Counted from the stretch's first letter, positions 7,943 through 26,049 are shown. The stretch: DNA of 35,277 nucleotides from Bdellovibrionales bacterium (GCA_050246815.1 JBFWVI010000034.1:1-35277); one strand, 5' to 3'. Program-made: numbers and translations. Notes: a model not told the origin generated them from the letters alone.

Positions 7943-8194
7943 TCCAGCCCATTTAGAAATTCCCGATTTTTCCAACCGATCACTTAAATGACACCCTTTG
8001 CTTTTACTTAGCAATGGCCAGGTTCAAATTCAAAAGAGTGACCGCCTGCGAGCAAAGCCCTTCTCTGCCAAAGTCCAATTAACGCACCTGCGAAGAAACC
8101 CCGATCCCCCGCCGTTTTAGGTCATTTTATTTGCTTCACCGTCGCGCGTTTTTTACAACTGAAGTTCAATCAAACCGGCAACCATGAGGCCTTG

Positions 8195-9844
8195 ATGACC
8201 ACAAAAAATCAGCAAAAGTTCGTGCCCGCCAACTACCAGCCCAAACTGCCGGTGAACGAACTGATCCGACGCGAAACTCCCAGTGGCGAAAATGTGGTCC
8301 CGCTGGATGTGGTATTTGTCGGCGCCGGTCCTGCCGGATTGTCGGGGGCCATTGAATTGGCCCGACTTGTGAAAAAAGACGGCATGAACGTTGAAATCGG
8401 GGTTTTGGACAAAGCCGCATCCCTTGGCGGTCACAATCTTTCGGGTGCTGTGATCAATCCCATTGGCTTTCGCACTTTGTTCCCCGAAATGAAAGACTCG
8501 GACTTTCCCTTTCGCCGACCCGTCAGCAGTGAACGCGTCTACATGCTGACTGAAACCGGCACATTTCGCATTCCCGCGCCACCCACCATGCATAACAGCG
8601 GCAATTTTATAGGCTCGATCTGCGAGGCCGTTCGCTGGCTGGGTCAACAAGCCGAGGGTTTGGGCGTCAATATTCTGACCGGCTTCCCCGCCGATGCCTT
8701 GTACGTTGAGGACCAAAAAGTGATTGGCGTAAAAACCACAGCCATGGGCCTTGACCGCAGCGGACAGCCGGGCACGAATTTCACTCCACCAACGGACATC
8801 ACGGCGCGAATCACCGTGCTGAGCGAAGGCACGCGTGGAGCACTGTCACAAGCTTATTTGGATTGGCAAAATATTGGCTCGACCATGCCGCAAATTTATG
8901 CGCTGGGAGTAAAAGAAATCTGGCGCGTGAAAAAAGCCCCGCAAGAGATCATTCACACCCTGGGTTGGCCTTTGCCCAAAGATGCATTTGGCGGCAGCTT
9001 TTTGTATCCCATGGCCGATGACATCGTGGCTTTGGGTTTGGTGGTGGGCTTAGACTACCGCCAAAGTAATTTAGACGTGCATCACCAACTTCAGGTGATG
9101 AAAAAACATCCCCTGTTTGCCAGCATTCTGAATGGCGGTGAGTGCATCGAGTGGGGCGCCAAAACAATCCCCGAGGGTGGCTATCACTCGATTCCTGAAC
9201 GTTTGAGCGGTGACGGCCTGATGATTCTTGGAGATTCGGCAGGGCTTGTGAACGTGCCGGCTTTAAAGGGCATCCACTTCGCGATGATGTCGGGCATTTA
9301 TGCGGCCCGGGCCATTTTTAAAGCGCTGAAAGCGGGCGACACCAGCGTCAAAGCTTTGAAAGCCTATGATGATGAACTGCGCGCCAGCCACTTGATGAAA
9401 GATCTAAAAAAAGTCCGCAACATGCGCCACGCCTTTAAAAGTGGCTTTTACGCCGGTGGCATTAAAGCCAGTCTGATGACCATCACGGGCGGGGCCTTCC
9501 CGGGGGATGACACCCACGCTGTGGAAGACGCCGAAGAGTGGAAAGAATTTGGTTCGCTTGAAACCCCTCAAGCCAAAGCGGGCTTAAGCAAAGTGGACGC
9601 GGTTTATCTGTCCGGCAACAAAACCCGCGATGACATCCCCCAACACCTGTTGGTGGGCCAAGACATCACTCCAGAGCTTGCGGATTTTTATTCGCATCTG
9701 TGCCCCGCCGGTGTTTACGAACGCCAAGGCGACAAATTGGTGGTCAACGCCCCCAACTGCGTCGACTGCAAAGCCACCGACGTCTTGGGCCCCCGTTGGC
9801 GCCCGCGCGAAGGCGGCAGCGGCCCGAATTACGGCCAGATGTAG
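8195..9844 (+). CDS. Electron transfer flavoprotein:quinone oxidoreductase (ETF-QO/FixCX-like)
   Basis: FAD motif [37 protein letters not shown], and C-terminal Fe-S motif CPAGVYE...NCVDCK...EGGSGPNY. Confidence 0.93.
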
Positions 9845-10227: not shown

Positions 10228-11079
10228 GTGTTTATGGCGGGTTTAAAAGAAATAGGTTTGAAACTGGCTTTTTGGTTGTGCCAATTGACGGCAGCTGTTC
10301 CATTTTTTACAATTGCTGAGACCTACACGCTCTTCCAAAACGGGCAGCCTCATCGGCAATACTCTCAAATTCTTTTGCGAATTCAACCTGGTGATCTGGT
10401 GCACTTTTCAAATGGCAAAGAGTTTGCGGTCACGCGCAATTACGTTCTTGAATCCGGTCGTTCAGACAAGGGCAGCAATGCTATTTTGGGAGTCCAAGGC
10501 GGGCACATCTTGCGACTACCCAAACACTGCGCAACGATTTGGGAATGCCGTCGTTCGCAGGAATCCCTGCAGCGCTACTTAGACGGCCACCGCCTCTTAG
10601 CATGGGCTAAAGTCCCCACCCCCGAGATTTATTTGGCAGAAAGCTATTTGCCTGAATATTTGCTGCAGGAGGAAGTCGAGATCCTGAGTCTTCTAAGCCA
10701 CCGGCTCAGTGCCGCAGATGAAGGCCTTCGACCGCTTGAAAAATTACTGATCGAGGCGTTGCGGAAATTCTTCCTAAAAACAGCCCCGTTCGTTAGCATC
10801 GGCGACTTTTATGCGGATCAGGTGGCTCTGACCTCAAAAGGGGTCATCTTACTGGATTGGCACGACGGCCACCAGCTTTACAGCCCGTCTTCGGGAGTCC
10901 CCGGCCTCACCGTCATCCGCAATTTGCGCCAGCATCAAAACTTAAAAACTCTTCTCGATTCTTTGGAATCCACCATTTTCACTGAACGCCAGTCCTTGCG
11001 TTGCCAACAATGGCTGGAGCGAACACAATATTTAGAAAAGATGTTTACCTATGCTCATGAACCCGTCACACCTAACTGA
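10228..11079 (+). CDS. Hypothetical protein with a degenerate protein-kinase-like (RIO/Kdo/APH-like) fold, possibly exported
   Basis: Hydrophobic N-terminus. VPTPEIY...YLLQEEV (hinge-like) and IGDFYADQV...VILLDW resemble the HGDLxxxN...hhDW motifs. The start may be ATG 10234. Confidence 0.5.
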   Translation: MFMAGLKEIGLKLAFWLCQLTAAVPFFTIAETYTLFQNGQPHRQYSQILLRIQPGDLVHFSNGKEFAVTRNYVLESGRSDKGSNAILGVQGGHILRLPKHCATIWECRRSQESLQRYLDGHRLLAWAKVPTPEIYLAESYLPEYLLQEEVEILSLLSHRLSAADEGLRPLEKLLIEALRKFFLKTAPFVSIGDFYADQVALTSKGVILLDWHDGHQLYSPSSGVPGLTVIRNLRQHQNLKTLLDSLESTIFTERQSLRCQQWLERTQYLEKMFTYAHEPVTPN

Positions 11080-11489: not shown

Positions 11490-12113
11490 ATGTTCAAACA
11501 AGTAATCGCAATCGTTGCAGCGGTCGGTATGATCGCGACCGTAAATGCAAATGCACAAGGCGCAGCCAAAGGCGCAGCTAAAGCCGCTGAAGAAGTTGGC
11601 GCAGCTGTTCGTGGCGGCAAAACCATTAAGCCTGGCCAAGCTGGAGCAAAAGTGAACAGCACGGGCGCAGTGAAGAGCACAAGCAGCGAAGCTGCCGGCG
11701 TTGTAACTCAAAAACAAGAAGCTGCAGCGGCGACTGGCGTTGATAGCCACGTGACCTGCCCGGCTGACTCTGTTTTGAGCAAACTTCCTCGCTCCGCACA
11801 AGCGACTGTTCAAGAATTCCAAGGCATGGGTGGCGGCGGCAGTGCTTGCATGGTGAACCTTAAGTCTGTCGAAGCAGCGAATGCAAAAGTTGCTGGCGAC
11901 GCTGAAGCCATTCAAGTTGCGAAACGTTTGGGCGTGACTGACATTGCCAGGGCAACCAAAGTTCAATTAGTTAAAATCGCTCAAGGTTGGACCAAAGGCA
12001 TCATGAATGCACTGGGAATCAAAGAGATCGCTGAAGGCGTTCGTCGCACTAAAGCTATCTGTGCAAACAACTGCGACCTCCTGTCGAAACAGTTGTGCGG
12101 CGCTATTCAGTAA
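11490..12113 (+). CDS. Secreted Ala/Lys/Gly-rich hypothetical protein with 5 Cys
   Basis: Strong RBS AGGAGAGG, signal peptide ending ANA, GCT/GCA/AAA-rich codons and its own terminator. Confidence 0.85.
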   Translation: MFKQVIAIVAAVGMIATVNANAQGAAKGAAKAAEEVGAAVRGGKTIKPGQAGAKVNSTGAVKSTSSEAAGVVTQKQEAAAATGVDSHVTCPADSVLSKLPRSAQATVQEFQGMGGGGSACMVNLKSVEAANAKVAGDAEAIQVAKRLGVTDIARATKVQLVKIAQGWTKGIMNALGIKEIAEGVRRTKAICANNCDLLSKQLCGAIQ

Positions 12114-12353: not shown

Positions 12354-15300
12354 GTGATGAGATCGATCTACTCCACCCTTATTCTAAAGTCTTTTAAACG
12401 TAGCCTGCGTCGTACTGGCATTTTGGGGTTATCAGCCATAATGGCCGTTCAGCCTGTGTTCGCTCAGCCTGGCCCCAGCACTAATTCGAAGCTGACTCCG
12501 GCCCAACAGGCCTTCTTAAAAGCCCTGGCCGCTCAAGTTAAATCGACAAAACAAAGCGCCGCGACTCAGACCAAAGTGGTCGTTGAAAATGCCGCCGCGA
12601 ACTACTGTGTGACCGGCAAAGAGGGCACTGCGGTCCGCGAAGATTTATTGGCTTTGGAGCCTAAGCTCAAAGCCGAAACGCAGTCCTGGGCCGAGGCAGC
12701 CAAAAACCATAGTCAAACACTTCGTAACTTGCGACATGATCTGCTGACCAATGACGAAGCATATAGCCGTCTGGAGGCGGAGCTCAGCAAGTCAGAAGAT
12801 CTGGTTGTTTCTTTGCGCAATCGTTTGTTCGCCACGCTTGGGCAACTACCCCGGATCTATCGTGATCGTGGCCAATTGATGATTGAAAGCTACTTCAGAA
12901 TTCTGGGCTACCACATGGAACTGAAGCTTTTCGCTGAGCCCACCCGCTGGGGCTTGAATGAGCTACGTGAAAAGTACGCCTTAGAAATGTCGCCAGCTTC
13001 AGTGGAGCGCTTTTTCAACGATGGTGACTTTTCGATCGACGGAATTGAAATCCAACCGCATATTCGTGAAAACAAGATGCTTTATCGTTTGTCATTGAAC
13101 GAGCAAAATGTGTTTTTATCTTTTGTGCGAGCTGCGGCCCGCTCGCCGCATTTAAAAAAGCCCAGCCAAGCTTACGTGGAAACTGTACGCTGTGTTTTAG
13201 GCCGCGCCACTTTGGGAAAGTATGCCTTGAACAAAGCTTTGGTCGACCAAGGCGAATTGGGACAACCACTGAATCCCGAACAAAATTTTTGTTTGGGAGT
13301 GAAGGCCAAAGAATTTATGCAAGTGGTCCAACATGAGGTGGACATCACTCGCGAAATGTCTTTGCGCACGATTGTCGCCAAAGAATTACCGTCCGCCGTC
13401 CACGACTTTTCACGACACACGCAAGACTTTCTAACGCAGACTCAACTAGGTTCCGCAATCACCACTTTAATGGGCTTCCCGGAACTTCTGCCGTATGTTT
13501 TGCAGGACACGGTCGAGCAGCGCACAATTCCTGCAGCTGTTGCCGCCTTTATGGCGATTCATCGCGATATCGACGCCAGCATTGAAAAACAGTATAAAAA
13601 AACTCCCGCTCTTGAAGATCTGCGTTTTATTTGGAAAAGTCCCGCCATCCAAGCCAAGCTGGGTGGAGTCTTGAACAACTGCGCCGTCACGCTTAAAGAA
13701 CCCTCTGGCAAGGCCCTGACAGTAGATGATGTTTGGGAAAAAATCCTGCGCTCAGACGATTATTACTTCACCGTCATGCTGACAACTAATCTTAAGCAGA
13801 TTCCGGGCCGTTGGCTTGAGATGAAAAAATCCGAGTTGGCGTTGAGCCTGCGCAACTATATCCTGGCCACAAAAACTGCCGGATCATTGCGTGCAATCAC
13901 CTCTTTGTTTGGCGCCTATGCAGATCAGCAGTCCGCCGATGCCGATGCAATTGCGATGGCCATTCATGAAGACTTCTCAAATTTGCTAATGAAAGAGTAC
14001 ACCGCCTTGTGGAACAAAAATCCAGCTTTGCAAGCCTGGCTAGATGGTATCGTGGAAAAAGTTGAGGCTGGAAAAGCCGGAACAAAAAACTTTAAAAAGC
14101 CGCTTTTGGCCTACACTGAGGCGTTGATTCAAAAGGCACAAGAAGTCGCCAAAACTATGGATCCAAACACCTCGGTGGCGGATCTTCCCTACAAAGAAGA
14201 CTATGTCCTGATGGCATTGTCCGAGCCGATCTTGAAGCTGACACCTGACAATCGTCGCCGCTACGACCTGCTACTTGAACAATCCGCCCAAACCGCCCGT
14301 CAGGCAGTTTGGAAAAAGCTTTGGCCCATCATGCAACAAGAGGCGGCACAGAAAAACATGACCTGCGATGACCCGGGTCTGGGCCGACGACTGGGCGCGA
14401 TGGCCGCCAGCGGTCTTCGCCATATGACTTTCGGTCTTGTCGACATGAAAGACGTGGTCGATCAAAATGTTGTCAATCAAGATTGCCGGACAATGAAAAT
14501 GATTGCAGGTGTGACCGGAGTTGAGAGGGCAGAAGCTCCCACAGATCTATCACATGCCATCATTTATCTTACAAATGCTCAATTTGACGATGAGTTCATC
14601 AAAAACTTTGAACTGGCTTACCGAAAGCAAGTGGCGGCCGAGATCATGGATGAATTCCGCATCTTGGATCTGCCCACCTACACCCCGGGAAAATTTGATA
14701 AGTACATTCTGCGCAAAACAGAGCAGCGCTTCTGGCAAAAAGTCGTTCAGATCAAAAACGCCGAACTTTTACAGGCAGACGTCGTCGCCGCCTTGCGCTT
14801 AAGCATTGCCGACCTCGAAAGCCGACTAAAAACCGTGATCAACGCGCAAAGCGAAAAGGACTTGGAATTCTTTATCAAACGCACCAAATCCATCAACGTT
14901 CTGCTGGGCGAAAACACCCAACACAAAATGCTCGCCCGCTTGGGGGCTCAACAAAGCGGCGCCAAAGTAGCCATCGCGTTGTCTGCACCCGACCTTGGCT
15001 TCGTCTTTCCTTCTTTGTTGAAATATCATAAAGAGATACAAGATCGCTCAATTTTAGACGAAGAGTTTGATCATGAAATGTGGAGTGAGTTCGTTAATGC
15101 CAACACCGTCTTGGTGATGGCGGTGATCGGCGGCTGGGTGATCAAACATGCCGCGGGCTTGTTGCCTCGCTTCACCCTTGCACCAGCGATTGCCTCAAGA
15201 ATCGACCATGTTGGTAGCCGTATGTCCATGGTAATCGGCGCTCACGCCGATTACACTTTTATGATCTTAGCCGCGCATTTGGTAAATGCTCATTTGCGTG

Positions 15301-15959
15301 AAACTGAGTACAGCTCTACTCAAGAAAATATTGAAAGCCTTAATCGTGCTGAAGGCGCCGAAAACCGAGATGGTTCGATTTTCGAAGACTTCCCGCTAAG
15401 TCCATTCAGCTTGGTCGACAAAGAGAGCTTCTTAAAACAACAAGAGCTGTTCCGCTCTGAAGCGGCTAATCAGAATTCGCAATTCTGGCAAACTGCTGCT
15501 TTCTTGACCCTGCCCTTTTTGATCGGCCGGGGCACCAATGTCGTTGGCCATGTTGCAAACAAATTCCGCATCTCCATTGAGAAATCATTTGAAGGTATCG
15601 GATATTTCGGACGTCAGCGTCACGAAATGTGGATGCGGTTTGGAATTCGCAGCAAAATGCACTTGCTTCGACGTGACTTCAAAATTTTGGGTAATCCTTC
15701 GTCGGTGGAAGTCAGCTTGTTACGCTCGCATGCGGATCGCGCGAAAGTCGCAGCCACAACTGAACGTCAAAGAGAAAAAATCGAAGAAGCTTACCAGCGC
15801 ATCGTGAATCGATTTGGTAAAGATGTTCATCGCTACATGAATATGCCGCAACTGCAGCAGGCTTACGCCAATGCATTGTACGGAAAGGGTGGATCTGTTC
15901 AAAACCTAGTGAATCTGCAAAAAGAAGCCACCCGTTTGCGAGAGGCAGGTTTATTATGA
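12354..15959 (+). CDS. Large exported helical hypothetical protein (1201 aa) with C-proximal hydrophobic helices
   Basis: Long ORF, signal peptide ending VFA-Q, three hydrophobic segments near residues 910-1060, and ATGA overlap with the next gene. Confidence 0.85.
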   Translation: MMRSIYSTLILKSFKRSLRRTGILGLSAIMAVQPVFAQPGPSTNSKLTPAQQAFLKALAAQVKSTKQSAATQTKVVVENAAANYCVTGKEGTAVREDLLALEPKLKAETQSWAEAAKNHSQTLRNLRHDLLTNDEAYSRLEAELSKSEDLVVSLRNRLFATLGQLPRIYRDRGQLMIESYFRILGYHMELKLFAEPTRWGLNELREKYALEMSPASVERFFNDGDFSIDGIEIQPHIRENKMLYRLSLNEQNVFLSFVRAAARSPHLKKPSQAYVETVRCVLGRATLGKYALNKALVDQGELGQPLNPEQNFCLGVKAKEFMQVVQHEVDITREMSLRTIVAKELPSAVHDFSRHTQDFLTQTQLGSAITTLMGFPELLPYVLQDTVEQRTIPAAVAAFMAIHRDIDASIEKQYKKTPALEDLRFIWKSPAIQAKLGGVLNNCAVTLKEPSGKALTVDDVWEKILRSDDYYFTVMLTTNLKQIPGRWLEMKKSELALSLRNYILATKTAGSLRAITSLFGAYADQQSADADAIAMAIHEDFSNLLMKEYTALWNKNPALQAWLDGIVEKVEAGKAGTKNFKKPLLAYTEALIQKAQEVAKTMDPNTSVADLPYKEDYVLMALSEPILKLTPDNRRRYDLLLEQSAQTARQAVWKKLWPIMQQEAAQKNMTCDDPGLGRRLGAMAASGLRHMTFGLVDMKDVVDQNVVNQDCRTMKMIAGVTGVERAEAPTDLSHAIIYLTNAQFDDEFIKNFELAYRKQVAAEIMDEFRILDLPTYTPGKFDKYILRKTEQRFWQKVVQIKNAELLQADVVAALRLSIADLESRLKTVINAQSEKDLEFFIKRTKSINVLLGENTQHKMLARLGAQQSGAKVAIALSAPDLGFVFPSLLKYHKEIQDRSILDEEFDHEMWSEFVNANTVLVMAVIGGWVIKHAAGLLPRFTLAPAIASRIDHVGSRMSMVIGAHADYTFMILAAHLVNAHLRETEYSSTQENIESLNRAEGAENRDGSIFEDFPLSPFSLVDKESFLKQQELFRSEAANQNSQFWQTAAFLTLPFLIGRGTNVVGHVANKFRISIEKSFEGIGYFGRQRHEMWMRFGIRSKMHLLRRDFKILGNPSSVEVSLLRSHADRAKVAATTERQREKIEEAYQRIVNRFGKDVHRYMNMPQLQQAYANALYGKGGSVQNLVNLQKEATRLREAGLL

Positions 15960-17485
15960 TGCCTCGTCGTTGGCTCTACCTTTTCATGGCAACGGTCATC
16001 GCCACCACCAGCACACAAACTTTTGCTGAACCGCGCATACCGGCCGTCCCCGCCACAGCGACGCCAGCCTCTGCAGCTTCGGCGCCAGCCTCTGCAGCCT
16101 CGGCGGTGCCGCCACTGGTGATCAAAATTGATGCGAAAGCCTCTGTATTGGAAAAAATCGATCAATTCGTCAACGCTTTGCAAGACAGCAAGTACACCTA
16201 TGCTCTCAATGCGGAAATGCTGAACAAGATATTGGCGCGCAACAATGCTTCTCTTTTGCCCACCACCATCGAAGATCGCGCAGAATTGGCCAACCATGGC
16301 CCCGTTGAGGCCGAGGCCCAGTTTGAGTGGTCTGAAGAGCGCGCCCGCGTGTACAAAGTGGCGCATGACATTGTGACCGAACTGTTCGCCCAAGAAGCGA
16401 TCGAGATCAACGACAGCCTGTTGTCGATCTTGCATCGCTATTTGTTTGACGACCAAGCCCGCCTTCCGCTGACTATCTTGATGGAGCAAGTGATGGGCTA
16501 TCGTTTCAGCCCGGCGCAACTTCAGCACTTGAAGAAGGAAGCCTCGTGGCAGCGTCACTACACACAGGGTTCAATAGCTGGCATTTTGTTGGCAGCCGTA
16601 GGAGCCTTTTGGGGCGGGCGCAAGATTTTTTCAGGTAAAACTTGGATCGCGCTGAGAAGCGGTTTAACCCGTGCGGCCAAACGATCTGCCGCTCCTGCAG
16701 CCACAAAAGTGGATGAAACTGTCGCACATGCTCAGGCTCCATCAGTGGACGAACTATTGGCCATGCTTGATCGCATCGACGCCAATATGGGCTTGGGAAC
16801 TGCGGCCGCTAAAAATATGCCCAAACCAACCGCAAGCCAGAACGTGGCGAGACTTGGCAAAGTGCGTTTGTTCAGTCAATTCCCCGACATCTTTAGCCCC
16901 GCTGGATTTAAGGGAATGTTGCTGTTGATGGGTTTTTCAGCGGCTACTGGTGGTGGCTACGCGGGCGCCCATGAATTGATTAAAATTCTCTCCGCCGAAG
17001 ATCGCGACAATGGCGTCATCGACTTTGCTGTATTAAGCGACCAATATTACGATCGCCTGGCCGTGCAGCGCTTAATCTGCCTAAGCCATGATATGAAAAC
17101 TCAGGCCTTGGCGCTCAAAACACCAGAAAATTTACTGCCCATTCTGCAGCAGACCAATATGCTTTATTCTGAATTTGAATTGCTGAAGCGTATAAATCCG
17201 AGCTTGGTGGATCTGCTTCCCATGCCGCCTGAGGTCAGCCACAATCCGGAAACTGGTGAGGTTTCATTTGAACGTATGGCGCGGGGTAAACCCGTGACTG
17301 AAACCTTTCCTTGCAACAAATTGAAAGGGCGCCCCAAAAGCACCTTGCATGTCAGCGTGAACCAAGTCTTGAGGGACGTCTTAGAGAGCACGGATCACAT
17401 TACGGGGCTACAGAAAGCCGTGGCTGAAGAGGCCGAGAAAAAGGCGGCGGCGGCGAAAACCCTCGCCTCGCCGAAGAAGCCATGA
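15956..17485 (+). CDS. Exported hypothetical protein (509 aa) with two Gly-rich hydrophobic helices
   Basis: Signal peptide ending TFA-E, Pro/Ala/Ser linker, SIAGILLAAVGAFWGG and GMLLLMGFSAATGGGYAG. ATGA overlaps at both ends. Confidence 0.85.
   Translation: MMPRRWLYLFMATVIATTSTQTFAEPRIPAVPATATPASAASAPASAASAVPPLVIKIDAKASVLEKIDQFVNALQDSKYTYALNAEMLNKILARNNASLLPTTIEDRAELANHGPVEAEAQFEWSEERARVYKVAHDIVTELFAQEAIEINDSLLSILHRYLFDDQARLPLTILMEQVMGYRFSPAQLQHLKKEASWQRHYTQGSIAGILLAAVGAFWGGRKIFSGKTWIALRSGLTRAAKRSAAPAATKVDETVAHAQAPSVDELLAMLDRIDANMGLGTAAAKNMPKPTASQNVARLGKVRLFSQFPDIFSPAGFKGMLLLMGFSAATGGGYAGAHELIKILSAEDRDNGVIDFAVLSDQYYDRLAVQRLICLSHDMKTQALALKTPENLLPILQQTNMLYSEFELLKRINPSLVDLLPMPPEVSHNPETGEVSFERMARGKPVTETFPCNKLKGRPKSTLHVSVNQVLRDVLESTDHITGLQKAVAEEAEKKAAAAKTLASPKKP
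16062..16103 (+). repeat. 21-bp tandem duplication encoding (PASAASA)x2
   Basis: CGCCAGCCTCTGCAGCTTCGG / CGCCAGCCTCTGCAGCCTCGG, one mismatch. Confidence 0.85.
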
Positions 17486-19083
17486 CCCCACGTCGCCTTG
17501 TTTCATTCTGCTTAAGCTTTTTGTTGATACTGCCGCCAGTGACAGCCTCGGCTGCGGGGCCGACTTTGGGGCAGTTGTCATTTCAAAAGGCGTTTTTATT
17601 GGATCTTAAAGATTTGGTCGCAGCCTCGTATGACCTCAACTTGGTCCGCATTAAGTTTTTGGGCGAATGCTTAGCCCGCATGTCCGACCAGGATTTCAGT
17701 GCGGTGAAAATCAAAGAGGGAAACCACCGCCCTTGGCTTGACTGCAACGATGGTGTGGCGCAAATGCGCGAAAACACACGTATCAAATATCCGCGCGTAC
17801 GACGCTCGCTACTACTGTCTCAGCTGACAGAGGCTGGCAATCTGTACAGTCTGCTGGTCAATCTGCACAACAACATGCAATTGAAAGCCCTTAAGAAGCC
17901 CGAGCATGTTCTAAAAATTCGCATGGGTGGCATGGGCTGGGGTTTAGGTATTGAAAACCCTCTGGTCAGTTTTTTGAGCAGTGACTTGCTGCCCGCCCCG
18001 GCTTGGACTGAGGAAGAGCTTTCGGGGGTGGCTCGAAGTGCAGAAGAAGGCGCCGACAAATTTAATGTGGATAACTTGAACAAACTTTTGCATGAATCCT
18101 GCGCGCAAATCGCTGCAAAAATAAATGCGAATCCCTTTAAGCTTGATTACACCTTCTGCGGTCAAATGCGCTTGGTTTACTCCAAAGAGCAACACGGCTT
18201 AAGCCTCACTTACGATGGCTCGCTTGAAGATATTCGACAATTGACTGCGCAGGTGGAGCGCGCCAAGTCGTTTTTACCTGGCCAACTCCGCGGGCACCAC
18301 AACCGTTGGGAACAAGAGTACTTGGCGACGGTGCAGCTGAACCCCTATGTGGGCCTGGTCACTTCAGCCACCCCAAGCCGCCAAGACTTTATCGTGGCCC
18401 TTCGGATTATGGCGGGGCGAGCCCAACAAACGGTTGAGGAATTCACAAAAGTGCGAAAAGAGAAAAAACTGGATGACCCACATCTGGCGGATCCACAGGC
18501 TCTTTTAAAACTGATGCAGCACTTGCCCTTGGCGCAGAAACTGGTCGACAGCCCTGGAGTGGAACTTAAAAAAGCTTTGCACCTAAGACCGATGACCAAC
18601 TTACAAGAGATTTTTGACGAGCTGAGCAGCGAACACAACTTTGAAGAATTGAAGCGGGTCGGAAAAATCATCGCCGTTGGCGTGGCCGTCAATATGGCCT
18701 GCATGATCCCCTTTGCCCGCATCGGTAAATCGGCGGGCAGTTTCGCATTGAAACTCGCAAAACTTGAAAAAGTGTCCGACCTGCTGAAACTTAAAAAATG
18801 GGGTGAGATTTCATCTGCTGTCTTTACCCCAGTTTGTTTTTCAATCACAGGTATCGCGGTCAATATGGGCATGCTCTATGAAGCGCAGTATGAATATGCC
18901 GAAATTTACGACCAGGTTTTTGGCAGCATTTCCGATGAAACTTTGATGCGTCAAGTGAGTGAACTCAGCGACAAAGAACGCGAGGTCTTTTGGTCAGCCG
19001 CCACCGTCTTGATGGGAACAGGGGTGGTGAAGTTTGGTGTTGAACGACTGAAGAAAATGATCCTGGGCGCAAGGGGTCTTTAG
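17482..19083 (+). CDS. Exported hypothetical protein (533 aa) with three C-terminal hydrophobic helices
   Basis: Signal peptide ending ASA-A, IIAVGVAVNMACMIPF, AVFTPVCFSITGIAVNMGML and VFWSAATVLMGTGVV. Confidence 0.85.
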   Translation: MTPRRLVSFCLSFLLILPPVTASAAGPTLGQLSFQKAFLLDLKDLVAASYDLNLVRIKFLGECLARMSDQDFSAVKIKEGNHRPWLDCNDGVAQMRENTRIKYPRVRRSLLLSQLTEAGNLYSLLVNLHNNMQLKALKKPEHVLKIRMGGMGWGLGIENPLVSFLSSDLLPAPAWTEEELSGVARSAEEGADKFNVDNLNKLLHESCAQIAAKINANPFKLDYTFCGQMRLVYSKEQHGLSLTYDGSLEDIRQLTAQVERAKSFLPGQLRGHHNRWEQEYLATVQLNPYVGLVTSATPSRQDFIVALRIMAGRAQQTVEEFTKVRKEKKLDDPHLADPQALLKLMQHLPLAQKLVDSPGVELKKALHLRPMTNLQEIFDELSSEHNFEELKRVGKIIAVGVAVNMACMIPFARIGKSAGSFALKLAKLEKVSDLLKLKKWGEISSAVFTPVCFSITGIAVNMGMLYEAQYEYAEIYDQVFGSISDETLMRQVSELSDKEREVFWSAATVLMGTGVVKFGVERLKKMILGARGL

Positions 19084-19247: not shown

Positions 19248-19271
19248 ATCCTTCAGCTTGAAGGAGTTTTT

Positions 19272-21659
19272 ATGTCTAAAAACCGCCGTTTACTTTCGAC
19301 ACTGATGGTTTTGAGCCTGATTTTAGGCAACAGTCCGCCAGCCTTGGCGGCCGGTGTGCCTGAAGCTTTGAGGCGCGGTTGGACCTATCTTACCACCTTA
19401 GGCCGCAGAAGTGCCCCCCAAACAGAGAAGGCTGGGCAAGCAACAGCGACTACCAATTTGCCCCGTCAATCGATGCGCAAAATCTTGCAACATGTGGATG
19501 AATTAGAACAAGCGACCTCGGGGCTTTTTAAAAGCATTTATAGCCGCGTGGCTTCAGGCCATTACGTCCCCACCTTGGGGCGTGGGCAAAAAATCGACCA
19601 AGCGATGATTCACTTAAATAACCCCTCCATCGAGATGATTGCCATTGAAGGAAGCGAGGGCGTGGGCAAGACCCAAATCCTGATCGGCATACAAGAGCGC
19701 ATCCAGACAGGCCAAGTTCCTACAGCCCTGCAAAATGGCCGTGTGGTGCAATTGAACTCCAGCAACGTGATCCTGTCAGACGTTAAACAGGTTGAAAGCC
19801 AACTTGAAGTTTTGGCGAGCCAGTCAAAATTTGATGGTCCGATTATTCTTTCATTCTCTGAGATCTCTTATTTTTTAACCGAAACAGCAAGCAAGGCCCG
19901 CACCTTTGATATGGTTGTTGATGCAGCTGTTCGCAAGTTGGGTCGCGAACGCGTGCGCATCGTGGTGGAGGGCACCGACAATGAAATCTTAAGCCTTTCG
20001 AAAATTAGCAGTGCGGGCAAACGAATCGCCCGTGTCAAATTACAATCTCTGACCTCCTCAGATCGCCTTGCTTTAGCAAAAGACATCGCCCGCAGTATTA
20101 AGGCCGACGGCGCCAGCGGCAAAGCGGGTTTAGATATCACGGATGCAACACTGGAACAGGCCCTGCGTCTGGACGAATTGTATTTAGGTCATATCGGCTC
20201 ACCCAAATCGTTGGTCAATCTTTTGCTCGGTGCGAAGAGTCTTCGCGAAGTTTTGACTCATGCCACCGAATCACCCCTTTCTCTTGAATTGCGAGAAATT
20301 AAAAAAGAACTGACCCATGAGCTTGAGCGGGCAAAAGGGTTGGCCGGAACATATGCACAGCAGCGCCAGAAAGAAATTCCTGAAGCGATAAAAGGCATTG
20401 AGCTTAAAATTCAAAAATTAGACAAGCGCTTCAATGCATTAAAGGCTGCAATCAAAGAAACAAAAGAGCTACGAGCTAAATTAGGCGAATTCAAATTGAA
20501 TGGCAAAGCCACCGCAGAAGAGTTGACACGTCTTGAGGCACGCATAAAGGAATTAGACAAAGAGCTTAATCAAATCACCCCGGATGAATTGGCTATGTGG
20601 ATCCAGCAAGAGACCAACTTGCCGATTGATGAAATTCTGAAGAATGAACTGACCATGGCCGAAATTGTAAAAGAGTTTGACCAGAATGTTTTTGGTCAGC
20701 ACCTTGCCGTACGAGCGGCTTTAGATGCGGCAGAACGAGTGACTGCGGCTTATCGCACCAGCGATGCCCCCTCCAGTATTTTGCTCTTAGGTGGCCCGGG
20801 CACCGGTAAAACTGAAATTGCAAAAATTTTGGGCAAATTGATGGGACACTTGGAACGCTTCGATGGCTCGGCCTTTATGCAGGCCCACCAATCCGCCACT
20901 TTGCTGGGCGCACCCCCCGGGTACGTGGGCTACGACGCCGCCTCTCCTGGTTTAATTATTTCGGCTGTTCAAAAATTCAAAAGGATGACGCTGCTCTTGG
21001 ATGAAGTTAACTTCTTCCATAAAGACTTTTTAAAACTTCTATATCAACTTCTGAGTGATGGACGATTGACGGGCGGGACCGGTGTAGCCGGCAACTTCAA
21101 AGACACCATCGTCATAATGACGATGAATCCGACTGTTGAGATTCCAAAAGGCGCAACGCGGCAGCAGCTAGAAGATATCGTGATGGCTTCCGGAGATGGT
21201 TTTACAGGACCGATGTTGAATCGGATCACCGAAATCGTTGCCACTGAAAATCTAGATTACTCCGTTTTTGCAAAAATTTTGGGTAAAGAAATCGGACGCC
21301 TCAATGCCTCCATGGCCAAAGATTTGCGACACGTGAGATTAAGCCCCAGTGCCGAAGCTGCGCTGTTAAAGCCTTTCACCGAGGAAGGCAGTAACATTAC
21401 CGCCCGTGATATCAATCGCATCGTTCAGAAAATGGTCACCGATCCCGTCAACCGCCTGCGTAATCAGGGATTCTGGACAACCGCAGATGGTTTGACGCAA
21501 GAATTACGCTTTGCAGATGGCGATATGTTGGAACTGGGGCACACTGACGGCCTAGGATTTTTTTGGCGAGTGGCTCAACCCGGCGAACCTCCAGGCGTGC
21601 CTAGTTTGCGCCCATCGACTGGTGCTGCAACCCCACCCGCGCCGCCCCAAGCACGCTAA
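19272..21659 (+). CDS. ClpB-like double AAA+ (Hsp100) ATPase with an N-terminal signal peptide and degenerate NBD1
   Basis: RBS AAGGAG and signal MSKNRRLLSTLMVLSLILGNSPPALA. NBD1: PTLGR, GSEGVGKT. Coiled-coil middle domain. NBD2: VFGQ, GGPGTGKTE, GAPPGYVGYD, LLLDEV, DGRLT, IMTMN, LNRI. Confidence 0.88.
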   Translation: MSKNRRLLSTLMVLSLILGNSPPALAAGVPEALRRGWTYLTTLGRRSAPQTEKAGQATATTNLPRQSMRKILQHVDELEQATSGLFKSIYSRVASGHYVPTLGRGQKIDQAMIHLNNPSIEMIAIEGSEGVGKTQILIGIQERIQTGQVPTALQNGRVVQLNSSNVILSDVKQVESQLEVLASQSKFDGPIILSFSEISYFLTETASKARTFDMVVDAAVRKLGRERVRIVVEGTDNEILSLSKISSAGKRIARVKLQSLTSSDRLALAKDIARSIKADGASGKAGLDITDATLEQALRLDELYLGHIGSPKSLVNLLLGAKSLREVLTHATESPLSLELREIKKELTHELERAKGLAGTYAQQRQKEIPEAIKGIELKIQKLDKRFNALKAAIKETKELRAKLGEFKLNGKATAEELTRLEARIKELDKELNQITPDELAMWIQQETNLPIDEILKNELTMAEIVKEFDQNVFGQHLAVRAALDAAERVTAAYRTSDAPSSILLLGGPGTGKTEIAKILGKLMGHLERFDGSAFMQAHQSATLLGAPPGYVGYDAASPGLIISAVQKFKRMTLLLDEVNFFHKDFLKLLYQLLSDGRLTGGTGVAGNFKDTIVIMTMNPTVEIPKGATRQQLEDIVMASGDGFTGPMLNRITEIVATENLDYSVFAKILGKEIGRLNASMAKDLRHVRLSPSAEAALLKPFTEEGSNITARDINRIVQKMVTDPVNRLRNQGFWTTADGLTQELRFADGDMLELGHTDGLGFFWRVAQPGEPPGVPSLRPSTGAATPPAPPQAR

Positions 21660-22875: not shown

Positions 22876-23475
22876 ATGACCCTAGACGAGCTGCTAAAAA
22901 CCCGCGACCCGATGAGCCTGTTTGCACGCTGGTACGCAGAGGCGCAAAAAAACGCGAAGCTGCGCGAGCCCACCGCCATGGCCCTTGCCACAGCCAACAA
23001 GCAGGGGCTGCCGTCGCTGCGCACGGTGCTGCTAAAAAGTTTTTCGGCTGAACAAGGTTTTGTTTTTTACACCAACTATCAAAGCCACAAGGGCCAAGAC
23101 TTGACCGAAAATCCGCAAGCCGCTTTGCTGTTTTATTGGGATTCGCTCTTTCAGCAAATCCGTGTGCAAGGCCCGATCCAAAAGGTTTCCCGCGAAGAAT
23201 CTGAGGCCTATTGGAATTTGCGCCCTTTTGAATCCCAAGTGGCGGGTTGGCTTTCGCGGCAGTCACGCGCCGTGACGGGTTCACTGGATCAAATGTTCTT
23301 GGACGCGCAAAAAAAATGGCAGGGCAAAAAAGTTCCCTGCCCCGAGCACTGGGGCGGCTTCGCGCTTAAGCCCTCAGTGCTTGAGTTTTGGATCGGCCAC
23401 CCCAACCGCCTGCACACCTCGGTGCGCTTTGAGCTTAAGAATCAGACTTGGGTGCCTGAACAGCTTTACCCCTAG
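22876..23475 (+). CDS. pdxH: Pyridoxamine 5'-phosphate oxidase
   Basis: PTAMALAT, RTVLLK, FYTNYQSHKG, QIRVQG, PEHWGG and EFW...NRLH. Confidence 0.95.
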   Translation: MTLDELLKTRDPMSLFARWYAEAQKNAKLREPTAMALATANKQGLPSLRTVLLKSFSAEQGFVFYTNYQSHKGQDLTENPQAALLFYWDSLFQQIRVQGPIQKVSREESEAYWNLRPFESQVAGWLSRQSRAVTGSLDQMFLDAQKKWQGKKVPCPEHWGGFALKPSVLEFWIGHPNRLHTSVRFELKNQTWVPEQLYP

Positions 23476-23589
23476 ACCTTTGGGCCGTTTTTCGCCTACC
23501 TCTGATAACTCGAATCTATTTAGCCTTTGGTCCAGGACGTGTGGGCGATTGACATTGCGCAGTCAGGCTTGATCGTTTGTAATATTGAT

Positions 23590-26049
23590 GTGCCAAATGT
23601 CATTGCCATCGTTGATGACCCCAAAATGCGCAGTCAAATCGAATCTTATTTCAAAGAGATCGATGCGGAAGGCATTCGTCTGCGCTTTTTCACCACCGGC
23701 TACGAATTCGAACAAAAATACTTCGCCCATAAACGAGCCGGCAAAGTTCACCCCCTTAACCAACTGCCGGGCCTTGAGGACTTTAGCTACGAGCAAATGG
23801 AAGCAAGCCTCTTGCTGCCGCTCAGCGAGAAGTCGCCACTGCCCCATCATATTTTGCGCTTGAAGTGCAATGCCAAGACTCTCAAAGTCGACAGCCTGGA
23901 ACCGGTCGTGGATTCCAACATGGCCGTTTTCAATCGGTTTCCCGAAGACTTGCTGAAAGAAAACAACCCTTTTGCGCATTGGGTGCAGACCGAGTGGAAC
24001 GATCACTGGCAGAAATTCCTAAAAAAAGCGGCAACGGCCAGAACACAGACCCTTATGCCGATGAAGGCCACCGAAAAAGAGCTGGTTTGGCTTAAAATTG
24101 CCTGTGAAAAAAGCGGCGCGGATCATCTGATCTTCACCTTTGAGGATGTCACCAACACCTACCGTGAAGGGATTCAAAATGAACTCAAGCGCCGTGCCGC
24201 TCACCAAGAAGAAAGTGAAGAACTGCAGCTGTTAAGCGAAATCGACATGGTGATTTTTAAGATCGATTGCATCTCGGGCAAAGTGCCCAAGTGGATGGAT
24301 CAAACCTGGAAGCAGTTGCGTGAAGGCGGTTACTTTCCGGGTGAAAAAACACCTCGTTTTATTTTGTTGAAATACGAAGACGATGGCATCAGCAAGCTTG
24401 ATGTGCTTCATAACCGTTTGGATGATCTGATTTATCTACCCCTTGACCGGCTGATCTTTCTGCAAAAGATGGAAATCATTCTTTCTCTACCTAAAAAAAT
24501 CACGCCTTCTTATCTTTTTTCTCAAGAGTTAGGCATGGACATCGAAATTTCAAAGCTCAGCAAACTTGAAAAAATCTCGGATCTGGGTTTGGCAATCCGC
24601 AACCCCGTGCGTTTAACAGAAGGATTGCTTGCGCACTTTTACGTCACATTTCCGGGCGATGACCACCCCACTGATCTGTGGGGCAAGGTTATTCATTCGG
24701 ACCCCCACCCCGAACGCCAACACGAATTTTTAGTCTATTTTTCATTTTTCGGTATTCGTAAAAATGACAGCATGTCGCTGAAACGATACCTTGCAAAAGG
24801 TGCGCGCTTTCACACTTTTATCAACAGCGAGCGCGAAGATTTTTTATTTAACCCGGACGATCTGTTTGCCAGTGACGATGACAAACGCATGCAACAAATT
24901 GCAGTTTTAGACTTGGACGATACTCACGCCGCGCAGATCAAAACCAATCTTCCGAAGGACGTAGACCAAACTCGTGTCATCGTTGAATCCAGCTATTCGG
25001 CCTTCGTCAATCGCTACATGTCTGCCGGCAACACGCAGTTCGCAAAGCCCCCAGATGGCGCAACCGAAGCCGACTTGTTCGCGCCCACGGTCACCTTGAC
25101 CATCAAAAGTGAATCTCTTGAAATGGTGGCACTGCAAACGCCCCCAACCGAAGAGCAAACTTATTTTGGCCATAAAGGGGTAGAGGCCTTTTCAACTCCG
25201 ACGGGCTGGATGAAACCCCTGGCTACCGTCAACGGCAACAAAGAGCTGATTGCAGAACTGGTGAGTCTGGCACTGTCGGGCCACACCGTGAACCGCACTC
25301 TGGTTGGCTCCAACAGCAGCAACGAAGGCCGCATTTTCAATTTGGTCCTCAGCGCGACCGCAGACCCGACGATCATCAAGGTGGACTTGAATCTTCCCAC
25401 CAAAGAGGACCTGCAGCCCAAAACAACCAACGAAAAAATTTCGAGTTTAGATTTGATGGTGGTGGATTTGGCTCTGGTGCCAGGTGGCAACATCAGCGGC
25501 TTTATCGAAGCCGTGAATGAGCAAGCGGCCAAGGCCGGACTGATGAAACACCGAAAGCGCCTTAAGTTCATTTTAACTTGCGTGACTGAAAAGCAGCTTA
25601 AACACCGCGACTGGGCCCACCCGGATTTGATCGGCGTGATTGTGAAGCCCGCCGAAATGCGACACTTGAGTTTTTTAGTCGCGAACGCACTTGGAACCAA
25701 ACACAGCGTCTACCGCTTAAATAACCTGGGATGGATGCCCGCGCTGCTGCCGGTCCATGTGGCCAAAGATGTGCGCCTTGAAATGCTTTCAGAATTCGGC
25801 GCCGCCATTCGGCACAGCCGCCCCATCGCGCCCGGTGCGATCTTGTATTTGCGTGGCGGCATTTTTGACAATGCCCCCAACCGCTGTTTGGCCGCGCGCT
25901 TTTACCACTGCGAGGAACACCCAAAAGAAAAGGGCCAATACCTGTGCACCATGATTTACTTTGGCATCAATGACGGATTCATGAAATACGCCCGCCGCTG
26001 GTTTCGCGAAACCTACGCCCAGTCCAAGCAGGCAGAAGGCAGCGGGTAG
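23590..26049 (+). CDS. Tandem-duplicated signalling protein: two copies of (REC-like domain split by a PAS-like insert + degenerate PilZ-like domain)
   Basis: Internal repeats KISDLG...HPERQHEFLVYFSFFGI and MLSEFG...HPKEKGQYLCTMIYFGI. REC-like IAIVDD / DLMVVD / IVKP. PAS-end motif FEDVT. Start GTG 23590 is uncertain (the ORF is open from 23527). Confidence 0.65.
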   Translation: MPNVIAIVDDPKMRSQIESYFKEIDAEGIRLRFFTTGYEFEQKYFAHKRAGKVHPLNQLPGLEDFSYEQMEASLLLPLSEKSPLPHHILRLKCNAKTLKVDSLEPVVDSNMAVFNRFPEDLLKENNPFAHWVQTEWNDHWQKFLKKAATARTQTLMPMKATEKELVWLKIACEKSGADHLIFTFEDVTNTYREGIQNELKRRAAHQEESEELQLLSEIDMVIFKIDCISGKVPKWMDQTWKQLREGGYFPGEKTPRFILLKYEDDGISKLDVLHNRLDDLIYLPLDRLIFLQKMEIILSLPKKITPSYLFSQELGMDIEISKLSKLEKISDLGLAIRNPVRLTEGLLAHFYVTFPGDDHPTDLWGKVIHSDPHPERQHEFLVYFSFFGIRKNDSMSLKRYLAKGARFHTFINSEREDFLFNPDDLFASDDDKRMQQIAVLDLDDTHAAQIKTNLPKDVDQTRVIVESSYSAFVNRYMSAGNTQFAKPPDGATEADLFAPTVTLTIKSESLEMVALQTPPTEEQTYFGHKGVEAFSTPTGWMKPLATVNGNKELIAELVSLALSGHTVNRTLVGSNSSNEGRIFNLVLSATADPTIIKVDLNLPTKEDLQPKTTNEKISSLDLMVVDLALVPGGNISGFIEAVNEQAAKAGLMKHRKRLKFILTCVTEKQLKHRDWAHPDLIGVIVKPAEMRHLSFLVANALGTKHSVYRLNNLGWMPALLPVHVAKDVRLEMLSEFGAAIRHSRPIAPGAILYLRGGIFDNAPNRCLAARFYHCEEHPKEKGQYLCTMIYFGINDGFMKYARRWFRETYAQSKQAEGSG

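Follow-up and report, generated by a model that had tools for sequence, protein, structure and literature searches.

A signal-bearing Hsp100 variant in a five-gene cassette of Bdellovibrionales, possibly part of a new bacterial translocation system

To our knowledge, the AAA+ unfoldases of bacteria are regarded as cytoplasmic proteins, since ATP is lacking in the periplasm. A gene found in a stretch of Bdellovibrionales DNA of 35,277 nucleotides, the whole of which is called the window below, appears to break this rule: it encodes a ClpB-like ATPase that begins with a secretion signal. This raises the question of whether the protein leaves the cytoplasm and, if it does, what it works with and where it would find ATP. 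The gene and its 5' end are laid out as follows.

19272..21659, plus strand: P0001, signal-bearing ClpB-like AAA+ ATPase of 795 amino acids, no internal stop
19261..19266, plus strand: Shine-Dalgarno sequence AAGGAG, 5 nt before the ATG of the ATPase gene
19272..19349, plus strand: predicted signal peptide of the Sec/SPase I type, residues 1-26, with cleavage after ALA (heuristic)

P0001 opens with MSKNRR, followed by a hydrophobic core and then PPALA, with the predicted cut before the next Ala. Between codons 12 and 122 there are 13 other possible in-frame starts, all of them without a Shine-Dalgarno match; the first later start that has one, codon 131, lies within Walker A. A downstream start codon was therefore ruled out, and the start that the first-pass annotation had called secure, with a good ribosome-binding site, holds. 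A short perfect hairpin (19249-19265) overlaps the Shine-Dalgarno sequence and could mask it, hairpins in the region being present at chance level. Promoter and terminator scans likewise gave results at chance level only.

A search of 41 related genomes recovered an orthologue in G004 that outscored every ClpB and also starts with a signal peptide. Word-indexed protein searches returned almost no family members; a profile search of 1.84 billion representatives succeeded, with further members among its top-ranked matches. The set analyzed here comprised 32 family rows, sharing about 15-38% identity, and was compared with 25 canonical ClpA, ClpB and ClpC proteins. Left out of the 32 were P0068 (not a member), P0069 (a fragment), G012 and G148 (both partial), G238 (a mirror pattern, see below) and G099 (a near-copy of G133). 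When signals were scored with our own n/h/c heuristic for Sec signals, not SignalP, 29/32 family rows passed, compared to 0/25 canonical Clps; the three misses were a fragment, a row whose called start shows no signal and a row with a signal discernible by eye. Throughout this divergent family the signals share a positive n-region, a short h-region, a Pro turn and an A-x-A box. The signal peptide proposed for P0001 is thus borne out by its relatives, and a one-off artefact was rejected since the signal-bearing ATPase is conserved as a family. Twin arginines occur in 3/29 family signals (24/331 in the genome baseline); because RR is not conserved, the route would be Sec, and Tat export was rejected.

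Past the cleavage site, most family members carry an aromatic, basic amphipathic helix. A Trp falls within the first 25 mature residues in 17/29 members, compared to 76/331 other signal-bearing proteins of the genome, and the net charge of the first 18 mature residues is +0.93 in the family against -0.31 in those other proteins. A basic mature N-terminus can hinder Sec export, and 13/29 family members have a net charge of +2 or more at this point (54/331 in the baseline). This charge, together with the lack of conserved cysteines in the ATPase, would suit a protein that is not exported at all, in which the peptide is an uncleaved anchor or targeting sequence and a cytoplasm-facing ATPase pushes the neighboring gene products or other cargo through the inner membrane. 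Such an arrangement would solve the ATP problem at once. The conserved layout, however, is that of a cleavable Sec signal and not of a reverse anchor, and 16/29 mature starts have a net charge of +1 or lower, so that we consider a non-exported ATPase distinctly unlikely. The first-pass annotation had allowed for either export or anchoring, with ATP met outside the cytoplasm in the first case; the sequences support export and the need for ATP, and the option of a tethered, cytoplasm-facing protein is the weaker one.

To see what kind of motor follows the signal, the remainder of P0001 was divided into domains.

19350..19493, plus strand: amphipathic helix with basic residues and Trp (about residues 29-42) and a linker modelled at low confidence and probably disordered; together they replace the Clp N-domain
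19494..20261, plus strand: NBD1 (about residues 75-330), probably a non-hydrolysing scaffold ring, with losses in Walker B and the pore loop
20262..20576, plus strand: ClpB-type coiled-coil middle domain (about residues 331-435), without L-x-Y-G
20577..21596, plus strand: NBD2 and C-terminal domain (about residues 436-775), motor residues present, no IGF/IGL loop

The top PDB match of P0001 is Thermus thermophilus ClpB (1qvr, E 8.7e-46, residues 91-726), and its NBD1 and middle region also match ClpB best. The AF2 model (pLDDT 73, with residues 1-74 under 50) shows the coiled coil as helices at 335-355, 360-410 and 415-432, and Foldseek led from this model to Clp/Hsp104 structures. The predicted order NBD1, middle domain, NBD2 therefore stands. 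As the first-pass annotation had noted, Clp-N repeats are missing: Pfam gave no Clp_N match in P0001, only NBD2-type AAA families, and an HMM of the canonical N-domain found nothing significant in the first 200 residues of family members (best E 0.017; P0001 E 2.4).

The part of that annotation that did not hold is the treatment of NBD1 as a normal active domain. P0001 keeps the Walker A Lys133 there, but its Walker B reads ILSFSE, with Ser196 in place of the Asp; also lost are the Tyr of the pore loop and one arginine finger. Across the family, the NBD1 Walker A Lys is kept in 26/32 rows, the Walker B Asp in 9/32 and the Glu in 4/32 (both in 3/32), and a pore Tyr is found in 0/8 rows that have a residue at that position. 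In NBD2, by contrast, P0001 retains K513, Y551, D577-E578, N619, R651 and R712, and in the family the Walker A Lys is kept in 31/32 rows, the Walker B Asp in 31/32 and Glu in 30/32, the pore Tyr or Phe in 27/32, the sensor-1 Asn in 31/32, the arginine finger in 29/32 and the sensor-2 Arg in 27/32. This retention of the NBD2 catalytic residues while NBD1 decayed supports a need for ATP. By its residues, then, P0001 is a motor with one predicted active ring, NBD1 being degenerate and NBD2 intact. In G238, the cassette ATPase (L098:3199-5682) shows the mirror pattern, with NBD1 fully intact and NBD2 dead, so that one live ring would be retained there too; that cassette also carries two C-like genes (see below for partner C).

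One might instead regard these proteins as exported scaffolds that are decaying or have no catalytic role, comparable to ClpB domains known elsewhere that have lost ATPase activity. The degenerate NBD1, the very long branches of the family and the loss of NBD2 residues in some members (G182, G159) would be in keeping with this. Seven functional positions of NBD2 are nevertheless kept in 27-31 of the 32 rows while NBD1 decays, and P0001 has all seven, which makes an inert scaffold highly improbable.

Two further motifs bear on the partners of the motor. The L-x-Y-G motif of the ClpB middle domain, which we take to be the contact with DnaK (E. coli Y503), was found neither in P0001 nor in the aligned family rows. 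The IGF/IGL loop for ClpP docking after NBD2 sensor 1 is present in the genome's own ClpA and in no family member, and a ClpP partner was rejected because this docking loop is missing. Since the genome also encodes an ordinary ClpB and ClpA, P0001 is an extra paralogue.

P0001 is most like ClpB/Hsp104 (TIGR03346; 1qvr, 4ciu). It shares with them the order and spacing of NBD1, long coiled-coil middle domain and NBD2, an intact NBD2 motor and the lack of a ClpP loop. The distance from Walker A to Walker A in the family is 355-523 residues, mostly 379-438, compared to about 400 in ClpB, 281 in ClpA and about 337 in ClpC. It differs in having a signal peptide and a low-confidence linker in place of an N-domain, and in the loss of the NBD1 Walker B, the pore loop and the middle-domain L-x-Y-G. 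Identity to ClpB is about 26-30%, and TIGR03346, although ranked first by NCBIfam, scores 187.8 bits, well under its cut-off of 1232. Judged by its sequence, P0001 departs from ClpB in four tested features and is not a ClpA, ClpC or ClpV.

The comparison with ClpV/TssH (TIGR03345) is of interest in that ClpV is a dedicated Clp paralogue encoded beside the machine it serves. ClpV is, however, cytoplasmic and works via its N-domain, and P0001 scores 154 bits against a TIGR03345 cut-off of 885. The T6SS sheath gene VipB/TssC (PF05943) was not found in this genome (G000, 99.1% complete), with E. coli positive as a control, and a ClpV role was rejected for want of a sheath gene. Clp-like AAA+ proteins outside the cytosol are known from Torsin in the ER lumen and human CLPB/Skd3 in the mitochondrial intermembrane space, and CLPB/Skd3 is a PDB match of P0001. 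These proteins have one NBD2-type ring, no NBD1 or middle domain and different partners, and they sit in eukaryotic compartments with an ATP supply.

The first-pass annotation had proposed that a phylogeny would tell whether signal-bearing forms make up a clade. FastTree placed all 32 signal-bearing rows on one side with support 99, on very long branches, and an NBD2-only IQ-TREE grouped 13/15 signal-bearing rows with support 87. Both trees, from which ClpV rows were left out, are open to long-branch attraction; the grouping is there, and a single origin is not proven by it.

Having established what the protein resembles, we looked at its surroundings. The ATPase gene is the last of five, A-B-C-D-ATPase, all on the plus strand.

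11490..12113, plus strand: partner A, 207 aa with a signal peptide, rich in Ala and Gly, 5 Cys, of no known family
12354..15959, plus strand: partner B, 1201 aa, signal peptide (by eye), no known family
15956..17485, plus strand: partner C, 509 aa, signal peptide, 4-nt overlap with B
17482..19083, plus strand: partner D, 533 aa, signal peptide, 4-nt overlap with C, constant neighbor of the ATPase

Partners A-D matched no family in Pfam or NCBIfam, and each is single-copy in the genome except for one weak D-like match. Conserved cysteines number 6 in B, 2 in C and 6 in D, and conserved uncharged, moderately hydrophobic 19-mers number 3, 2 and 3, respectively; neither feature was found in the ATPase family. 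The hydrophobic helices of B lie near its C-terminus and are followed by a basic tail, and those of D, three in number, are part of a C-terminal bundle. D is predicted to be helical (pLDDT 81, pTM 0.80). Its model gave no Foldseek match at E 0.001, only leads under 0.9 in an Atlas search and, in VIA, a best Z of 8.8 to a designed helical bundle that covers the C-terminal helices only and barely touches the N-terminal part. By eye, the C-terminal part of B (window 15576-15959) resembles a J-like domain without HPD; 12 members gave no Pfam DnaJ match at E 0.5 and the Atlas gave none, which leaves the J-domain-like tail as a lead with no support.

That all five cassette proteins are made with Sec-type signals is well supported by these predictions. 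Export of the ATPase by such a signal is likewise well supported, given a cleavable-type signal kept in a very divergent family, signal-bearing neighbors and conserved cysteines in three of them. The lone two-ring unfoldase of the first-pass annotation thus gives way to a protein with one predicted active ring and no DnaK-contact motif, encoded in a conserved five-gene cassette.

In 6 genomes (G000, G004, G008, G130, G252, G088), a single contig carries all five genes, with inversions. The ATPase gene adjoins D, in tandem or divergently, at 20/24 ATPase loci with flanking DNA, in genomes of 2 families and 10 genera; one genus accounts for 7 of these 20 genomes, which are therefore not independent. 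In 6 of these 20 genomes, protein E stands in for B and C. This second cassette type (L160, L161, L162, L165, L166, L168) consists of D, the ATPase and E, a signal-bearing protein of 1200-1480 aa with six conserved hydrophobic helices; homology of E to B or to C was not detected (hhalign probability 0.1-0.3%), nor was that of D to B. Some second-type cassettes also have a small exported protein 5' of D.

B occurs in 15/384 genomes of the order (one of them weakly), in 0/182 of the largest family and in 0/3 genomes of the same genus, and 12 of the 14 genomes with a strong B also have D and the ATPase. Given this patchy distribution, the cassette is not a core predation machine. D-like matches were found in 38/251 genomes, and D stands without the ATPase at 13/35 D loci inspected, two more ending at contig edges. 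Conversely, neither of the two ATPase copies of G009 has a partner gene in its vicinity. In G210 (81% complete) and G214 (100% complete, 350 contigs), B and C are present and no D or family ATPase was found, and G250 and G251 have the cassette split between two loci. From these lone, partial and split cases, it is clear that the association of the ATPase with its partners is not obligatory.

The GC content of the cassette, about 0.49-0.52, equals that of the genome (0.507) and so gives no sign of recent transfer. The cassette is flanked by genes for ETF-QO, a PdxH-like protein and an 840-aa PilZ-domain protein (window 8192-9844, 22876-26049). On inspection by eye, these flanking genes recur in several further genomes, with cassettes of either type, so that the cassette may occupy a chromosomal site fixed long ago. 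Elsewhere in the window, a 5'-truncated MoxR/RavA-like AAA ORF occupies the contig end (1-1344), and a 283-aa ORF (10228-11079) appears kinase-like by eye, has one weak paralogue on C28 and gave no match in Pfam or NCBIfam.

Where, then, would an exported ATPase find ATP? Because a predicted secretion signal and an apparently working motor ring have been kept together over great divergence, the cells would have to meet ATP outside the cytoplasm. One answer is that the machine stays in the predator envelope, with B, C and D in the inner membrane, their disulfide-bonded domains in the periplasm, and a periplasmic ATPase drawing on a local nucleotide pool. Signal peptides by themselves lead only to the periplasm, no outer-membrane secretion signal was demonstrated for the cassette proteins, and the three hydrophobic helices of B with their basic tail make a plausible inner-membrane topology. 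On the other hand, the hydrophobic helices of B, C and D, with a column-mean hydropathy of 1.0-1.5, are weak for ordinary inner-membrane segments, and a TLC ATP/ADP translocase was not found in the genome, a weak result since the control also matched nowhere. An NBD2 under catalytic selection also sits poorly with a periplasm described in PMC7053576 as free of ATP. We therefore regard an envelope machine as unlikely.

If the periplasm has no ATP and the motor is nonetheless kept, the simplest source of ATP for a Bdellovibrionales cell would be its prey, the predatory lifestyle of these uncultured genomes being assumed from their order. The cassette thus suggests, as far as can be read from its genes, an undescribed machine that would work outside the cell on prey ATP. 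In our preferred but tentative reading, which we hold at somewhat under an even chance, the ATPase would be the motor of a prey-directed, membrane-docked unfoldase or translocase resembling Plasmodium PTEX. Sec would take the cassette proteins through the inner membrane, and a secretin route would lead them out of the predator. The target membrane in which B, C and D would then insert is most likely the inner membrane of the prey; there they would form a channel or a dock for the ATPase hexamer to settle on. Using ATP leaked from, or lying in, the prey cytoplasm, its NBD2 pore would thread polypeptides, which may be enzymes of the predator on their way in or prey proteins drawn out to be digested.

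PTEX (HSP101/ClpB2, EXP2 and PTEX150; 6e10) is likewise a ClpB-type motor outside the cytoplasm with orphan partners, and HSP101 is among the sequence and fold matches of P0001. According to PMC7355975, the NBD2 pore loops of PTEX grip cargo and HSP101 docks via its C-terminal beta-sheet. P0001 has an extra beta-hairpin at about 733-745 in its C-terminal domain, as do most family members printed, and this falls where HSP101 docks. A signal that passes the heuristic and the NBD2 pore Tyr Y551 are PTEX-type features of P0001 at the level of sequence. The differences are that HSP101 has retained an N-domain and, as described, has both NBDs active, and that here bacterial Sec export is predicted into a compartment without ATP. 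Neither EXP2 nor PTEX150 was among the fold matches listed for D. The proposed machine would be PTEX-like in its working, with channel parts that would not be homologous. That it is an independently arisen bacterial counterpart of PTEX, in which a predator Hsp100 and three pore-forming subunits act at the prey inner membrane on prey ATP and carry proteins across it, is a more doubtful proposition, though one worth considering.

Counted in favor of the threading machine are the four secretins of the genome, the host order Bdellovibrionales and the presence of other signal-bearing P-loop proteins, including one that joins AAA, AAA and peptidase M41. The order is seen in the RNase Y encoded in the window, whose best matches are records of Bdellovibrionales/Pseudobdellovibrionaceae. 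Counted against it are the basic mature N-terminus, the patchy cassette and the need of ClpB for both rings in disaggregation. On this last point, PMC6593972 reports that wild-type ClpB needs both rings for efficient disaggregation, that NBD2 is its main threading motor and that defects of the first ring are partly tolerated once the enzyme is derepressed. In B. exovorus, the inner membrane of the prey is described as rupturing early, and a fixed junction whose composition is unknown forms (PMC11055950).

The same evidence from signals, motifs and synteny would also fit an exported remodeller, rather than a translocon, working on prey-derived ATP. Its clients would be the co-encoded proteins, and it would activate, insert or dismantle a membrane-attack complex of A-B-C-D(-E), in the way that T6SS sheaths are recycled by ClpV. 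As a variant, it may unfold prey proteins freely for secreted proteases. Throughout the phylum D is often found by itself, which would suit an autonomous protein of the toxin kind; the large partner varies between B plus C and the unrelated E; and the genome also encodes a predicted secreted FtsH-like protease. Against this, client selection in ClpV, ClpA and ClpC is the task of an N-domain, which is missing here, and a constant D with exchangeable large partners fits D as a dock equally well. We consider a remodeller somewhat unlikely.

The protease just mentioned (G000:C20:20916-24281, L173) is a protein of 1116 aa with a signal-like N-terminus, two AAA stretches and peptidase M41, and from its sequence appears to be FtsH-like and exported. 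A signal-bearing, distantly Clp-like protein of 909 aa with two AAA domains (G000:C43:19960-22698, L172) adjoins dnaJ and dnaK. Three more P-loop proteins with signals, 834, over 1675 and 842 aa long, were also seen (G000:C35:1-7642, L174; C143:2-2572, L175), the first two encoded by adjacent genes. In related genomes, many divergent Clp-like ORFs of about 680-1430 aa (L032-L048) have signal-like N-termini by eye, and from these, several separate exported Clp-like families seem to exist.

We found no description of signal-bearing bacterial Clp ATPases in the open-access and preprint texts searched. The ATPase family described here is an Hsp100 variant and possibly marks a new bacterial translocation system. 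It touches the open question of how proteins are moved into and out of prey by Bdellovibrio-like predators, and the cassette provides five concrete genes with which to approach export, ATP use, membrane insertion and assembly. If the proposal is true, the cassette would stand for a new class of systems for protein translocation in bacteria, driven by energy from outside the producing cell, and would belong to a larger array of exported ATP-dependent machines in Bdellovibrionota.
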